Shown here in pieces: positions 1,496 to 12,838 of a stretch of DNA of 32,000 nt. Source of the stretch: an uncultured Clostridia bacterium (GTDB lineage: Bacteria; Bacillota; Clostridia; TANB77; RGIG9151); the NCBI GenBank assembly GCA_934500865.1, contig CAKSUD010000008.1, positions 1 to 32,000 of the forward strand, read 5' to 3'. Positions within the stretch are counted from its first letter, which is position 1. Each line of letters opens with the position of its first letter. Both the position numbers and the translations under genes were made by a program. The notes below the pieces were generated by a model. The model had not been told where the DNA came from and did not search any database. It was given only the letters and a program-made list of their open reading frames with translations.

Positions 1496-3904
1496 ATGAT
1501 AGCATTTAGCAGAGCTATTAGCGGACTTAGGGTAGCAGAACAAAACTTATATGTTACAAGTAATAACATATCTAACGTTAATACTGAAGGTTATCATAGA
1601 CAACGCTTAGTTCAAAGCGAATTGCAAAAGACGTCAAGGGGTAATTTTAGCGTAGGACTTGGTGTAGATGCCAGTCATGTTAAACAGGTAAGGTTAGAGT
1701 ACTTAGAAACTAATTACAGAAATGAATTACCGGCTCTTGGTGAATATAAAATGGAATCTCAAGTATATAATAGCTTACAGTCTATTATAGGGTCTGATGG
1801 TTCTTCGCTCCAAGATACACTAAGTAACTTGTGGGAATCTTTTAATGAGCTTTCAAAAGAATATACAACGTCTGTTGCGGGTGGATATTTGAGAGAAAAT
1901 GCAGTTGCATTGGTTGGAGAATTTAATGGAATAGAGGACCAACTTATAAAAATGCAAAATGAGTTGGATATAGAAGTAGATAATGTTGTTGAAAAAATAA
2001 ATGATTATGCTAAACGAATAGCAAATTTAAATGACAGAATAACAAGTGGCGAGGCAGGCGGAGTTTTGTGCTGTGAACTTAGAGATAGCAGAGAGAGCCT
2101 TATTGCTGGACTTGCTGAGTTAATAGATATTCAGGTTGAAGATTTTTCTGATACTGCGGTTAATATAAGATGTGGAAATGGACATTTAGTTGTAGGAACT
2201 AATACAAATAGACTTTCTACAGCACAAAATATAGATAAAAGTACCTTTAGAAATCCGGTTTGGGAAAGCACAGGTCAAGCGGTAGAAGTTAATTCCGGTA
2301 CATTAAAAGGCATATTAGATATGCGTGGAGAGAATGTAGTTGGAAACTATGCTTCTTCTACAAACGGTAGCCCTAAAGAGAAAATGGATGTTGTTGTTAG
2401 CATTGATAAAGATTTATCATTAGCTAATATAGAGCGTATGAGAAATAACATAACTACAATGATGAGTACACTAGATAGACAAGGAGCTAACTATCAGTTT
2501 TATACAAATAACGGCGAAAAAATTGATGGAAATACATTAAAACTATATACAGACTATTTATATGGCTCTAAGATGTCTGAGATTTTAGATGGTTATGCGG
2601 GAGATAACAAGTCATTTACAGATTTTATCGATTCGGTTAAAGGTACTGTTAATCCTGAACAGGTAATAAAAGAATATATGGAAGATAAGGGAGTTACATT
2701 AGATTTATTAAAAAATCAGTTTGCCGGTGACGAAGAAATGCTCTCTCAAATCGAAGCTTATGAATTAGCGGGTGGGGATTCGGTTATTGGTTTCCAAATG
2801 TATGTGAGAGATATTCCTGGAAAAGAAACCTTATCAGATGAAGTTCAAGATTACTTAAATGGAACAATTCTTACTGTTGATGGACTAAAAGGTTACATAG
2901 AAGACGAAATGGTAAATATTCCGGTTAAAAAGGTAGGTGAAATAGATAAATTAATTAATTCTAGTTCATCTAAAGTGTTAGATAATATTGATAAATATGA
3001 TACGTTTATAAAATACAGAGAAGACAGTAATAAATATATGTTGGTATTTACTGATCAAAGGATAGACCCAGGTACAGATATTGAGCATACTACTGCTATG
3101 TTAAATAAGATAGATATGAGATTAATTACTATTACTAATGAGGCTTCTTCTAAGGACTGGATGAAGTTAGCACAGGACACAGGTGGAAATGTTTTAAGTA
3201 TTGAAGATTTTGATAGTAAAGATGGCGCTGAGAATTTGGGTCTTGCAATTTCTAGAGATTTTAATTCGAGATTAGATGCAACCGAAAATACAGATGGAAT
3301 TCCGGCTTTCCGTGCGGGTTTAAATAAGATACTAAATGGATTGACCAATGAAGTTAATGCTATTTTCCGTCAAGGAGCTAATATTTACGGCAATAGGCAC
3401 GGAGATGTAATTAAAGATGAATTTGGGAATGATGTAATAGATGATGAAACGGGAAAACCTTCTACATATAATTTAGATTTATTCTTAAAAATTGATGAAA
3501 AGCTTCCTTTACAGATGGGAAATATTAAAATTAATCCGTTATTTTCCGATTTAAATAATATGCCTTTATCCTTGACTGGGGATACGGGAGATTTCCAAAT
3601 AGGAAGAATGTTAGTTGATTTGACTAATACTGATGTATTTAATAATGGTAATAGTTATTCTACTGTTGATGAACAATATGCAAGTTTCATTTTGAATTTT
3701 GGACAGGCGGCGAACATTGCCATAAGTGGAGCCGAGACGCAAGAAAATGTTCTTACTGCGGCAAGTGAGAAACTAAGTGCTGTCAGTGGTGTATCTATGG
3801 ATGAGGAACTTAGCAATATGGTTAAGTTTCAATATAGTTATACAGCCGCTTCAAAAATGATTAAAATAGTTGATGAAATGTTAGAGACGGTTATAAATAT
3901 TTAA
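1496..3904 (+). CDS. flgK: Flagellar hook-associated protein 1 (FlgK), long paralog with a large central insertion
   Basis: N-terminal axial-protein motif (SGLRVAEQNLYVTSNNISNVNTEGYHRQ). C-terminal FlgK motif (MDEELSNMVKFQYSYTAASKMIKIVDEMLETV). The ATG at 1496 follows a GGGG-rich RBS. The ORF-track GTG at 1448 is a possible alternative start. Confidence 0.85.
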   Translation: MIAFSRAISGLRVAEQNLYVTSNNISNVNTEGYHRQRLVQSELQKTSRGNFSVGLGVDASHVKQVRLEYLETNYRNELPALGEYKMESQVYNSLQSIIGSDGSSLQDTLSNLWESFNELSKEYTTSVAGGYLRENAVALVGEFNGIEDQLIKMQNELDIEVDNVVEKINDYAKRIANLNDRITSGEAGGVLCCELRDSRESLIAGLAELIDIQVEDFSDTAVNIRCGNGHLVVGTNTNRLSTAQNIDKSTFRNPVWESTGQAVEVNSGTLKGILDMRGENVVGNYASSTNGSPKEKMDVVVSIDKDLSLANIERMRNNITTMMSTLDRQGANYQFYTNNGEKIDGNTLKLYTDYLYGSKMSEILDGYAGDNKSFTDFIDSVKGTVNPEQVIKEYMEDKGVTLDLLKNQFAGDEEMLSQIEAYELAGGDSVIGFQMYVRDIPGKETLSDEVQDYLNGTILTVDGLKGYIEDEMVNIPVKKVGEIDKLINSSSSKVLDNIDKYDTFIKYREDSNKYMLVFTDQRIDPGTDIEHTTAMLNKIDMRLITITNEASSKDWMKLAQDTGGNVLSIEDFDSKDGAENLGLAISRDFNSRLDATENTDGIPAFRAGLNKILNGLTNEVNAIFRQGANIYGNRHGDVIKDEFGNDVIDDETGKPSTYNLDLFLKIDEKLPLQMGNIKINPLFSDLNNMPLSLTGDTGDFQIGRMLVDLTNTDVFNNGNSYSTVDEQYASFILNFGQAANIAISGAETQENVLTAASEKLSAVSGVSMDEELSNMVKFQYSYTAASKMIKIVDEMLETVINI

Positions 3905-3929: not shown

Positions 3930-5504
3930 ATGAGGACAGGTTCTTTTGCAGGACTGAATTTATCGCTTAGAGCATTATATTCTAGCACAAAGGCAATGGA
4001 TGTTACATCTCAAAATATTGCCAATGTTGGAACTAAAGGTTACACAAGACGTGTTGCACAGTTTAAGACTTTTGGACAGGACGCAACAGGTATTACAGAA
4101 CCTATTTTTGGATTAGGAGCTGATTGTGTTAGTGCTGAGCGAATGAGAGATGAATATTTAGATACTAAGATGTGGAATCAAAGTTCTATTTCTAGTGAAT
4201 GGTCTACAAAGAATGAGTATTATCTTGAACTTGAGAAGATTATAAACGAATCTTCTGTTTCGGGTTTGGTTGGAGCGATTGATGAGTTTAGTGCGGCTAT
4301 GAATGATTTTGCAAACAATCCGTCAAGTACTACATACAGGTATTTAGTTCAAAACAAAGGCGTTCAGCTTACAAATTATTTTAATGAAACTGCGGTGCAA
4401 TTAGAAGAACTTCAAGTTGAATTAAATAATAAGGTAAAAGAACAAGTCGATGAAATAAATGATTTAGCTAAGCGAATTGCAGATTTGGATGTTAAGATAA
4501 GGAATAATGAAATAACAGGCAGAGAAAGTAATTTGTTAAGAGATGAAAGAGACTTATTAATAGACAGTCTGGCTGAATTTGGAGATATAGAGGTTACTGA
4601 AAAAACATACGGAAAGCTTATAAACGGAAGCGATGATGTTAGAATAACCGTAAAATTTGCTGGAACTGTTATGATAGACCATGGTAATTATAGAGAACTT
4701 GAGATTTCAAAGCGTGTAGATAAGAAAAATGCCGAGGATGTTGAGGGACTATATGATGTAGGTTGGAAAGATGGTGCAACTCTTACTTTATCATCCGGTA
4801 AACTAAAGTCCACAATGGAATTAAGAGATGGTAATGGAAGCGATGATACTGGTTGGGTAAAAGGTGTACCTCATTATATAGATGAGCTTAACAAGATAGC
4901 TAGAAATTTTGCAATGGCATTTAATGAAGGAATTGTAAATGGTCAAAAAGTAAGTAAGGGGTATGCAGAAGGTTATACTTTTAATTCGGCAGAAGATGCA
5001 ACTCAACCTGCAGGATTAAGGTTTTTCTGTACAAACGAAAGATATTCTAATGAATTTGCTAATGGATGGCAGACAAATGCCGATATAATAGATGGATACC
5101 AAGAATTGAATGCAAAAAATATTTCTCTTTCTAAAGAAACTTTAGATGATGTAGGAAATTTATTTAAGTCATTTGATAGCCCACTAAATAATAATGATAC
5201 AGAGTCAATAAAGAGCCTTCTTGATTTTAAGGAAAATAGGGAGCTGTTTGGTACATCAAATTTAGAGGATTATGTATCCGGAATGATTACCAATTTGGGT
5301 GTTGATGCGGATGTTTCTAAGAAACTTTATAAATCGCATACATCTATAATGACTCAATTAGAAAATCAAAGAGATGCGTATTCTGGAGTTTCTTTAGATG
5401 AAGAAGCGACTAACTTAGTTAGATACCAACAGATGTATAAGGCTGCTGCTAAGGTAATGTCAACATTTTCTGAGATATATGAGGTATTGGTAAACACGAT
5501 TTAA
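3930..5504 (+). CDS. flgK: Flagellar hook-associated protein 1 (FlgK), standard-length paralog
   Basis: N-terminal motif LRALYSSTKAMDVTSQNIANVGTKGYTRR. C-terminal motif LDEEATNLVRYQQMYKAAAKVMSTFSEI. RBS AGAGGAG lies upstream. Confidence 0.85.
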   Translation: MRTGSFAGLNLSLRALYSSTKAMDVTSQNIANVGTKGYTRRVAQFKTFGQDATGITEPIFGLGADCVSAERMRDEYLDTKMWNQSSISSEWSTKNEYYLELEKIINESSVSGLVGAIDEFSAAMNDFANNPSSTTYRYLVQNKGVQLTNYFNETAVQLEELQVELNNKVKEQVDEINDLAKRIADLDVKIRNNEITGRESNLLRDERDLLIDSLAEFGDIEVTEKTYGKLINGSDDVRITVKFAGTVMIDHGNYRELEISKRVDKKNAEDVEGLYDVGWKDGATLTLSSGKLKSTMELRDGNGSDDTGWVKGVPHYIDELNKIARNFAMAFNEGIVNGQKVSKGYAEGYTFNSAEDATQPAGLRFFCTNERYSNEFANGWQTNADIIDGYQELNAKNISLSKETLDDVGNLFKSFDSPLNNNDTESIKSLLDFKENRELFGTSNLEDYVSGMITNLGVDADVSKKLYKSHTSIMTQLENQRDAYSGVSLDEEATNLVRYQQMYKAAAKVMSTFSEIYEVLVNTI

Positions 5505-9643: not shown

Positions 9644-9857
9644 TAGCACAGACGCAGTATATATAAATTAAGCGACTTTACGGAGTTTTTTACCGGTTCT
9701 CCAAATTTGCCGAAGGCAAAACCGTCAAAATTTCGCGGATGAAATTTTGAGCGAGAGTCGACAGGGATGTCGACTTTGAGCGACGGTTGGCAATTTGGAT
9801 AGAACCTCTAAAAACGTAGTCTTCGGAGCGGAATTTATATATGCTGCGTCTGTACTA
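9644..9857. repeat. 214-nt imperfect palindrome / structured element between convergent genes
   Basis: A 26-nt outer stem pairs 9644-9669 with 9832-9857 (24 Watson-Crick pairs, 1 G-U, 1 mismatch). Inner pairings include ggttct/agaacc and accgtc/gacggt. Three local hairpins sit at 9706-9720, 9726-9749 and 9756-9775 (the last has a GGGA tetraloop). The element is visibly richer in G/C than its flanks. Confidence 0.7.
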
Positions 9858-12046: not shown

Positions 12047-12132
12047 TTAAAAATCCTCACTTTATTCTGACTAGATTTTATCACACAATTTTGTGCTATT
12101 CAATTAAAAAATATTAAATAAGAAGGAAAATG

Positions 12133-12161
12133 TTGACAAAAGCTTAACATATGTATATAAT
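12133..12161 (+). promoter_or_regulatory. Consensus sigma-A promoter driving a short non-coding transcript
   Basis: TTGACA, 17-nt spacer, TATAAT (exact consensus). No ORF or RBS lies downstream before the terminator. Confidence 0.6.
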
Positions 12162-12167
12162 ACAATT

Positions 12168-12241
12168 ATAGAGCGAGAGCTCTATAAATCGTATACATGA
12201 CAAATGCCAAAAGAAAAAGCGAGGGGGAGACCTCGCTTTTT
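12168..12241 (+). ncRNA. Candidate ~75-nt antisense sRNA (type I antitoxin-like)
   Basis: Runs from the predicted TSS to the intrinsic terminator. The 5' hairpin is TATAGAGC-gaga-GCTCTATA. A single-stranded 16-mer at 12184-12199 is perfectly complementary to the start-codon region of the convergent peptide mRNA. The 3' end overlaps that mRNA at the shared terminator. Confidence 0.45.
12214..12241. terminator. Bidirectional intrinsic terminator
   Basis: aaaaa-GCGAGG-gggaga-CCTCGC-ttttt: a G/C stem flanked by an A-run and a T-run. Confidence 0.7.
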
Positions 12242-12254
12242 CTTGTTTATTGTA

Positions 12255-12326
12255 CTAATAACATTGTGATGTAAGAAGAATAAATAGGATAAGTACAAAA
12301 AACAATATACGATAAATCGTATACAT
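12255..12326 (-). CDS. 23-aa hydrophobic peptide MYTIYRILFFVLILFILLTSQCY (type I toxin-like)
   Basis: GAGGAGGTGA RBS with 7-nt spacing to the ATG. A single predicted TM-like segment. The stop codon lies 14 nt before the bidirectional terminator. The longer ORF-track versions (12182-12424, 12255-12470) lack an RBS. Confidence 0.5.
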   Translation of the reverse strand: MYTIYRILFFVLILFILLTSQCY

Positions 12327-12369
12327 GCAATCACCTCCTCGTGGAAAGATTTGGCAATGCCATAAATAA

Positions 12370-12398
12370 TATATACCATATATGTAATAAAATGTAAA
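12370..12398 (-). promoter_or_regulatory. Candidate promoter for the 23-aa peptide mRNA
   Basis: On the minus strand: TTTACA, 17-nt spacer ending in TGg (extended -10), then TATATA. Confidence 0.4.
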
Positions 12399-12417
12399 TA
12401 GGTTTCTTTTAAAAATG

Positions 12418-12446
12418 TTGACAAAGGTTACATAATATGATACAAT
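12418..12446 (+). promoter_or_regulatory. Sigma-A promoter for the 86-aa ORF
   Basis: TTGACA, 17-nt spacer ending in TGa (extended -10), then TACAAT. It shares the 14-mer aaaatgttgacaaa with the promoter at 12133. Confidence 0.55.
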
Positions 12447-12529
12447 AAACTGTCTGTTCTTTATATACATATTTTGCAGTCTTTTTTGCGAAACAAAATT
12501 CTAATTCATTTCTTGAGGAGGAAATTATT

Positions 12530-12790
12530 ATGAAAAATTTTAGCAAAATCGATCGCGAGTTACGGCGTATGCTAGTTTGCACTTTTGGCTATTCTGAGGT
12601 CGAGGATGAGGTCAGAAAGCGATGCATTGAAGCAATTTGCAAAAAGGATATGAAGTATTTAAAGAGAGACTTAAATGTTTATTGCAGTAGTGAGGGAATT
12701 GATTATGAATTAAAAGCCGTGAGTGTGTGCCTTATCTTGTATAGATATGGGATTTGGCAATACGTTAAGAACAAGGTCTTGTATGGCTAA
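12530..12790 (+). CDS. Hypothetical small protein (86 aa)
   Basis: Strong RBS GAGGAGG, an upstream promoter and a downstream terminator. No family recognised. Confidence 0.6.
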   Translation: MKNFSKIDRELRRMLVCTFGYSEVEDEVRKRCIEAICKKDMKYLKRDLNVYCSSEGIDYELKAVSVCLILYRYGIWQYVKNKVLYG

Positions 12791-12794
12791 GAAT

Positions 12795-12838
12795 ACAGAG
12801 ATAGTGGAAAGTTTTTTCTGCTATCTCTGTATTTTTTT
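12795..12838 (+). terminator. Intrinsic terminator
   Basis: ACAGAGATAG...CTATCTCTGT: a 10-bp stem followed by a T-run. Confidence 0.75.

Follow-up and report, generated by a model that had tools for sequence, protein, structure and literature searches.

A putative convergent gene pair between recD2 and an 86-aa gene

The window analysed here comprises positions 1 to 32,000 of contig CAKSUD010000008.1 from an uncultured Clostridia bacterium of human-gut metagenomes, whose DNA is low in G+C (33%). Between recD2 and an open reading frame (ORF) for 86 amino acids (aa) it contains a unit of 285 bp (12141-12425), located in an interval for which gene callers annotated nothing in any of more than 20 contigs. 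The unit is laid out as two convergent genes, one on the minus strand for a hydrophobic peptide of 23 residues and one on the plus strand for a small RNA (sRNA). It probably represents a chromosomal type I toxin-antitoxin cassette of a new family that follows the logic of the par locus. The cassette lies in a core-gene neighbourhood with spore-related genes nearby, which encode a SleB-like hydrolase and an S55 SpoIVB-type peptidase and are in keeping with a host from the Clostridia.

An earlier sequence-only reading of this DNA had proposed a promoter, a Shine-Dalgarno sequence (SD), a 23-codon ORF and a G/C-rich terminator on the minus strand, an exact-consensus promoter on the plus strand, a 16-nt direct repeat and a second complementarity across the common terminator. 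By direct reading combined with repeat and promoter scans, every sequence feature it had named was recovered where it had been placed. The features are as follows.

12127-12140, plus strand: left 14-mer AAAATGTTGACAAA, holding the -35 of the sRNA promoter and forming the left boundary of the 285-bp unit
12133-12161, plus strand: promoter of the sRNA (putative antitoxin), TTGACA-17-TATAAT, matching the consensus at 12/12 positions
~12168-12250, plus strand: predicted antitoxin sRNA of ~80 nt (fold prediction, ends deduced)
12168-12185, plus strand: 5' GAGA-loop hairpin of the predicted sRNA (fold prediction)
12184-12199, plus strand: sRNA copy of the 16-nt repeat ATAAATCGTATACATG (seed), complementary to the start region of the peptide mRNA
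12200-12210, plus strand: near-invariant sRNA segment ACAAATGCCAA, predicted to lengthen the pairing towards the 3' part of the SD
12211-12244, both strands: bidirectional intrinsic terminator with a 14-bp stem, loop at 12225-12230, placed between an A-run and a T-run
12326-12255, minus strand: putative toxin ORF of 23 codons plus stop, MYTIYRILFFVLILFILLTSQCY (ATG 12326-12324, stop 12257-12255)
12312-12327, minus strand: peptide-side copy of the 16-nt repeat ATAAATCGTATACATG, the translation initiation region presumed to be targeted by the sRNA
12340-12331, minus strand: SD GAGGAGGTGA, with 7 nt between GGAGG and ATG
12347-12343, minus strand: upstream anti-SD UUUCC, predicted to form an SD-sequestering hairpin
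12398-12393 (-35) and 12378-12370 (extended -10), minus strand: putative toxin promoter TTTACA-17-TGgTATATA, read from the sequence
12412-12425, plus strand: right 14-mer AAAATGTTGACAAA, forming the right boundary of the unit and holding the -35 of the promoter of the 86-aa gene, which itself lies outside the system

The sRNA promoter was the best promoter-like site in a scan of 2 kb.

Selective conservation among relatives

Related loci were reached via the protein clusters of the 86-aa neighbour. The fetched metagenomic contigs (labelled L with a number) yielded 17 full-length cassettes with 11 distinct sequences, and all conservation counts below refer to these 11 versions. No position varies in either -35, in either -10, in the TG of the extended -10, in the SD or in the two terminator arms. 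The spacer of the sRNA promoter varies at 13 of 17 positions while its length is fixed at 17, and that of the peptide promoter at 3 of 14. All six positions of the terminator loop vary, as does its length (6-8 nt), and half of the 3' untranslated region (UTR) of the peptide gene is variable. Between the window and L021, the most distant cassette, the unit is 88% identical and ~2.9 kb of mostly coding flank 83%, thus the seemingly intergenic 285 bp are at least as constrained as their neighbours. Judged from these alignments, constraint is concentrated on the elements which a convergent gene pair needs.

The loop itself reads GGGAGA in the window and is different in nearly all strains; the window, L002, L005, L018, L019 and L021 provide the versions GGGAGA, TCAGTC, GGTTGA, TCAGCC, GGTGTGA and TCCATACA, in each case between unchanged 14-nt stem arms. 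Such variability could reflect neutral drift or else a diversifying kissing-loop contact, which would always be self-complementary between the two RNAs.

Coding signal and family searches for the 23-residue peptide

The ORF of L021 differs from that of the window by five synonymous nucleotide changes, the conservative replacement F15L and I4F. Several strains carry the synonymous change TCA>TCG at Ser20, the first tandem copy of L018 has lost exactly one Phe codon by an in-frame 3-nt deletion, and the C-terminal ILLTSQCY is invariant. These counts are small, yet all of them are of the kind that translation of the ORF would lead one to expect. The peptide has a GRAVY of 1.73, and its hydrophobic core of 15 residues scores 2.9. 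It contains no Pro, Gly or Trp, ends in the tail TSQCY and is a putative single-span membrane peptide.

No Pfam or NCBIfam family matched the peptide, with no Fst, Ldr or Ibs match in Pfam (for Fst and Ldr at E <= 10). An Rfam E-value search of 12050-12530 returned terminator-driven matches only, which scored far under the gathering scores. The back-translated pattern xILLTSQCY-stop gave 0 matches in GTDB genomes, 3 in JGI metagenomes and 1 in IMG/VR, all of them attributable to chance. Furthermore, the conserved 21-nt word of the sRNA had no match in IMG/VR, blastn and tblastn against plasmids and phages found nothing, a protein search with a 71-aa in-frame ORF returned a 99% copy only, and the peptide string gave no match in the literature.

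Co-variation of the 16-nt repeat

An exact 16-mer direct repeat within 300 nt arose in 3/300 first-order Markov simulations of the 32-kb window. Allowing up to three mismatches, the 16-mer has one further site in the window, 5329-5344, with two mismatches. On the sequences at hand the repeat is beyond chance, as it sits exactly over the start codon and co-varies in relatives.

Three seed types occur across the cassettes. Type A is that of the window (sRNA AUAAAUCGUAUACAUG). Type C, found in L021, carries a T>A change in both repeat copies, and its match is one base longer at the opposite end. Type B belongs to the second tandem copy of L018 and L020 and differs at three positions, two of which are identical in both repeat copies. 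The third position reads G in the sRNA copy but A in the peptide-side copy, and in the RNA duplex this becomes a G·U pair. Compensatory changes are present in the second copy of L018 and in L021. They replace peptide residues 2 and 4, so that pairing persists at the cost of the N-terminal sequence.

In the intermolecular helix, 3 of 18 pairs are altered on both sides (U-A>A-U twice, U-A>G-C, C-G>G-U). The covariation score is 0.178, compared to 0.059 +/- 0.030 in shuffled alignments (1/500 of which reach 0.178) and <=0.039 with slid partners, statistics that are suggestive, not decisive, because the five rows share descent in one clade. The alignments document the complementarity as well as its maintenance, and suggest that an sRNA:mRNA duplex of 16-17 bp over the start codon was maintained in evolution. 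The sequence-only reading had set conservation and co-variation of the repeat in homologous loci as a check beforehand, and the relatives bear it out.

One contig, L033, deviates at positions 205-215 (equivalent to window 12320-12330), where the peptide gene starts with TTG in place of ATG, which also creates a U·U mismatch to the sRNA of this variant. The contig is 945 nt long, and its 86-aa gene looks damaged. The variant may represent an attenuated toxin or an assembly error.

Predicted RNA folds and pairing

The predicted sRNA fold consists of the GAGA hairpin, a single-stranded seed segment and the terminator (-31.8 kcal/mol, z = -6.2). The seed remains unpaired between the two hairpins. 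A covariance model of the sRNA matches the cassettes only. The sequence-only reading had expected a transcript of ~75 nt with a GAGA hairpin and no ORF. The hairpin is indeed predicted and the absence of a conserved ORF holds, while the length has to be corrected to roughly 80 nt. A plus-strand ATG within the sRNA has no SD, and its frame crosses the terminator loop and is not conserved, because the loop is 6, 7 or 8 nt long.

The seed is complementary to a stretch of the peptide mRNA that begins 1 nt before the AUG and ends with codon 5. This follows from the convergence of the two transcripts, which read the direct DNA repeat in opposite directions. Duplex prediction extends the pairing by the adjacent ACAAATGCCAA segment (CAA:UUG and UGCC:GGUG) towards the 3' part of the SD. 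One of the 11 positions of this segment varies, and both pairing partners of the extension are invariant. The common terminator adds a second complementary region of ~38 nt at the 3' ends of both RNAs. Cofolding the full-length RNAs yields the 3' duplex only, since a structure with both the seed and the terminator paired would have a crossing topology, which lies beyond the program.

Predicted duplex energies range from -26 to -37 kcal/mol for cognate and from -20 to -27 kcal/mol for non-cognate pairs, two ranges that meet. The A and B mRNAs each favour their cognate sRNA, by 7-15 kcal/mol, but with the C mRNA the sRNA of type B (-27.0 kcal/mol) is predicted to do as well as the cognate one of type C (-26.0 kcal/mol).

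According to the mRNA fold prediction, GGAGG pairs with the upstream UUUCC in three of four cassette types and is paired otherwise in the fourth. In par an upstream helix (5'-UH) sequesters the extreme 5' end of the toxin mRNA. Here a small 5' hairpin GGCAUUGCC is predicted on the mRNA, whose 5' end is deduced; substitutions in L002 and L021 break it. Codons 8-12 (UUGUUUUUUGUACU, 12296-12309) are predicted to pair with the 3' UTR just past the stop codon (AGUACAAUAAACAA, 12245-12254), a helix that would enclose most of the ORF. The 3'-UTR variants TTTATT and TTATTT show no clean co-variation with the codon deletion.

A Phe/Leu/Ile-rich ORF followed by a terminator may also be read as a leader-peptide attenuator that controls read-through into recD2. 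ORF, terminator and recD2 follow each other in this order on the minus strand, and 12210-12318 (minus strand) gives a weak match to the Rfam family Phe_leader (RF01859; 26.3 bits, E = 0.03). This score is far under the gathering score of 55, however, and the predicted folds show no antiterminator overlapping the GC stem. Moreover, recD2 has a promoter-like site of its own outside the cassette (TTGAAT-17-TGnTAAAAT at 12103-12075), and this flank is kept in the cassette-less contig L030. Nor would an attenuator account for the conserved promoter on the plus strand or for the co-variation of the repeat. We consider it hardly credible.

Copy number and the 14-mer junctions

The number of units varies among close relatives. 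L018 and L020 contain two in tandem, the window, L019, L021 and L033 one, L011 and L030 none. In L030, recD2 is separated from the 86-aa gene by 217 nt that contain no cassette, and the -35 region of the peptide promoter is left as a relic. In L011/L029 no cassette is found in the 195 nt up to the contig end, and the junction consists of the left flank, a single 14-mer and the promoter of the 86-aa gene. By neighbour joining on the flanking DNA, L011 falls within the cassette-bearing clade (100/100 bootstrap, 2.9 kb), in which L021 is basal; L030 is placed within this clade too, based on a short alignment. The simplest history would be ancestral presence with vertical descent, two losses and one duplication. 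Lineage-specific duplication and loss have been reported for type I loci (PMC2887945), and the duplication in L018/L020 together with the loss in L011/L030 matches this pattern.

In L018 the 14-mer is found at every unit junction, including the one between the tandem units. The identity of the two 14-mers is absent from the basal L021 cassette. That the promoters of the sRNA and the 86-aa gene have a 14-mer in common, as the sequence-only reading had pointed out, is correct (12127-12140 and 12412-12425), yet it reflects unit junctions and no functional link. In more distant relatives an HU gene lies upstream of the 86-aa gene and there is no cassette, although the 86-aa promoter and 5' UTR are kept. 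Because this promoter is kept without the cassette, the 14-mer appears to be a recombination joint and does not tie the 86-aa gene to the system. A functional link between cassette and 86-aa ORF was likewise rejected, as ORF, promoter and 5' UTR persist beside the SleB-like gene in cassette-less relatives.

Nor do the data support an insertion in which a mobile element duplicated 14 bp of its target. Terminal inverted repeats and further copies are missing, L021 lacks the 14-mer identity, and the cassette-less loci are nested in the cassette-bearing clade.

The unit could in principle be a repeat without function or a miniature mobile element in decay, in which ORF and promoters are fortuitous products of AT-rich DNA and both the 16-mer and the 14-mer remain from duplication. 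Direct repeats of 14 bp do bound it, its copy number does vary, and promoter-like hexamers are common in the scanned DNA (10 sites found vs 8.2 expected). Against this, conservation is feature-specific and not uniform, the reading frame is preserved, and the repeat shows compensatory changes including a G·U pair that is meaningful at the RNA level only. The unit also lacks terminal inverted repeats, has no second copy elsewhere in the window or in the loci examined, and was inherited vertically with its flanks. This explanation is thus very unlikely.

In L018 a called ORF of 143 aa (2370-2801, minus strand) spans both tandem cassettes in a frame unrelated to that of the peptide, which illustrates how such loci get mis-annotated.

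Comparison with known type I systems

The cassette shows the generic features of type I systems, i.e. a small hydrophobic peptide with a predicted transmembrane segment, a predicted antisense sRNA, and tandem duplication and loss. The closest layout is that of par (RNA I/Fst and RNA II) from plasmid pAD1 of Enterococcus faecalis and of its chromosomal relatives, in which convergent promoters, a common bidirectional terminator, direct repeats over the toxin start, an SD hairpin and a small hydrophobic peptide are combined (PMC7472228). Convergent promoters (here predicted), the common bidirectional terminator, a direct repeat that is read in opposite directions over the initiation site and a predicted SD-sequestering stem-loop are all present in our unit. 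The par-like architecture proposed by the sequence-only reading is supported by the invariant promoters, SD and terminator stems, by the coding signal and by the repeat co-variation in relatives.

There are clear differences, however. The cassette has one repeat of 16-17 nt with a short imperfect extension, whereas par has DRa and DRb. The peptide comprises 23 residues instead of the 33 of Fst and has no PXXXG(C), no Trp and no charged tail. The sRNA is ~80 nt long, compared to ~40 nt for RNA II (PMC7472228). The hypervariable terminator loop shows no consistent YUNR U-turn (the mRNA loop in the window reads UCUCCC), a motif that is missing from some par homologues too (PMC7472228). Finally, there is no Rfam match. 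Since the toxin criteria, the U-turn and the profile searches all fail, the cassette, which to judge from its sequence works like par, should not be filed as a member of the Fst family. The designation Fst-like in the sequence-only reading hence applies to the regulatory layout, not to the peptide.

A similar division of complementarity is known from SprA1/SprA1AS (PepA1) of S. aureus. There the genes converge and overlap at their 3' ends, while repression occurs via a duplex of the two non-overlapping 5' domains that blocks ribosome loading (PMC4885055). Convergent genes with 3' overlap and a further duplex apart from it, here a predicted one, are common to both. PepA1, however, is an Fst-family peptide of 30 residues with an Arg-rich C-terminus and no sequence similarity to the cassette peptide, and the S. 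aureus locus lies on a pathogenicity island instead of a core-gene neighbourhood.

With Ibs/Sib and Ldr/Rdl of E. coli the cassette has in common a very short, extremely hydrophobic (putative) toxin, tandem duplication within one intergenic region and a strain-variable copy number (PMC2887945, PMC4147584). It differs from both by the host phylum, and the peptide has no Pfam Ibs match. Ibs peptides consist of 18-19 residues, the last of which is aromatic. Sib overlaps the whole ibs ORF and ribosome binding site in cis, whereas here the start site would be paired by a separate repeat.

The known type I toxins of C. difficile (modules CD0956.2-RCd10, CD2517.1-RCd8 and others) have 34-59 residues and Lys-rich C-termini, are found in prophages or beside CRISPR arrays, and are controlled by antitoxins that act through overlap (PMC6563280). 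A Clostridia-type host, convergent overlapping genes and an unannotated toxin with an N-terminal transmembrane segment are points of likeness (PMC6563280). The cassette peptide is shorter, with its 23 residues, and has no sequence similarity to these toxins. Apart from those of C. difficile, few type I systems are known from Clostridia.

Proposed mechanism and its weighing

From this anatomy and from the precedents of par and SprA1 we infer the following mode of action, which includes both transcripts with their ends, translation of the ORF, its toxicity, translational block as the mode of control and the biological role. The minus strand would give rise to an mRNA of ~155 nt for a single-span membrane peptide of 23 residues, with an SD that is partly masked by a local hairpin until the sRNA pairs. 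From its consensus promoter the plus strand would produce the sRNA of ~80 nt. Both RNAs would converge on the one bidirectional terminator, leaving ~38 nt of complementarity at their 3' ends. The single-stranded middle of the sRNA could then pair with the mRNA from just upstream of the AUG to codon 5, with weaker pairing towards the SD, and thereby block ribosome loading. The duplexes are possibly substrates of RNase III. Once the sRNA level drops, the peptide would be made and would damage the membrane.

Several observations weigh against a type I toxin-antitoxin cassette. No homologue was found outside the locus in GTDB representative genomes, JGI metagenomes, IMG/VR, plasmids or phages, and two lineages lost the cassette without obvious consequence. 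To judge from its sequence, the peptide is without the clustered charged or bulky C-terminal residues that are usual in type I toxins of Gram-positive bacteria (PMC6563280). The co-variation derives from five distinct seed/target combinations (three types) that are related by descent within one narrow clade. In addition, copying between direct repeats at the DNA level could mimic compensatory change, although the G/A difference between the type B copies argues against plain copying.

Another explanation accepts the gene pair and dispenses with the toxin. The ORF would then be a genuine gene for a small membrane protein, for instance a modulator of a transporter or of the sporulation or germination machinery, whose level is tuned by the antisense sRNA. 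All regulatory evidence fits this equally well, and so do the missing charged tail and the core-gene neighbourhood beside the spore-related SleB-like hydrolase and S55 SpoIVB-type peptidase genes. What speaks for a toxin instead is the polymorphism in presence and tandem copies among close relatives, typical of dispensable type I loci (PMC2887945) and unusual for a housekeeping membrane subunit. Likewise, an antisense promoter with a 12/12 match facing a weaker promoter of the peptide gene, combined with dual complementarity, is the layout of an addiction module (PMC7472228), and the extreme hydrophobicity (GRAVY 1.7) resembles that of Ibs and other toxic peptides. We therefore regard a non-toxic membrane protein as rather unlikely and prefer the toxin-antitoxin cassette.

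If so, the cassette widens the picture in several respects, without changing the accepted view of how such systems work; mechanistically it is unsurprising. It would represent a candidate family from an uncultured human-gut lineage, and would indicate that the par layout of common terminator and start-site repeat can go along with a toxin unrelated to Fst. More tentatively, and with less confidence than we place in the cassette as such, several further points may be taken together. The cassette would found a toxin family whose untailed member of 23 residues is among the shortest candidates in Gram-positive bacteria. Dual complementarity of the par type would have arisen independently of Fst. 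The tandem copies of L018 would be a natural case of seed re-coding that insulates paralogues from each other, with three compensated positions at the cost of two amino-acid changes at the N-terminus of the peptide. The 14-mers at the -35 regions would be recombination joints by which the unit is amplified or deleted. In any case nature supplies a ready-made mutational series for sRNA-mRNA specificity, with seeds of three types, a pair compensated by G·U, a start codon changed from ATG to TTG, and 0, 1 or 2 copies.

The 86-aa gene and other neighbouring features

The 86-aa ORF (12530-12790, plus strand) encodes a genuine protein of very narrow distribution, with only 14 clusters among 5.8 billion proteins and an occurrence in one GTDB species. 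No Pfam or NCBIfam family matches its product. The motifs CTFGY.EVE and GIWQYVK are invariant, and the gene always lies directly upstream of that for the SleB-like cell-wall hydrolase, with or without cassette. Its promoter (TTGACA-17-TGaTACAAT, 12418-12500 region, plus strand) is kept in relatives down to 70% protein identity. The same holds for a 5'-UTR hairpin (TTTTGCA...TGCGAAA, ~12476-12497), in whose stem a change from U·G to U-A preserves pairing. This promoter and hairpin region may be a regulatory element.

An inverted repeat of 15 nt (14/15 positions) has its left arm in the spacer and -10 of the sRNA promoter (AACATATGTATATAA, 12146-12160) and its right arm in the 86-aa 5' UTR (TTATATACATATTTT, 12461-12475). 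The right arm is also present in cassette-less loci. The 5'-UTR DNA of the peptide gene (12341-12365) shares two words of 11-12 nt with 12751-12768 and 12804-12815, that is with the 3' end and terminator of the 86-aa gene. This is near chance level, and one of the words is fixed by the conserved GIWQYVK codons.

Further away, a TwoAYGGAY RNA (RF01731) is located at 9678-9822 on the plus strand, between a metallophosphatase gene and the 3' end of recD2, with 59.4 bits compared to a gathering score of 43.

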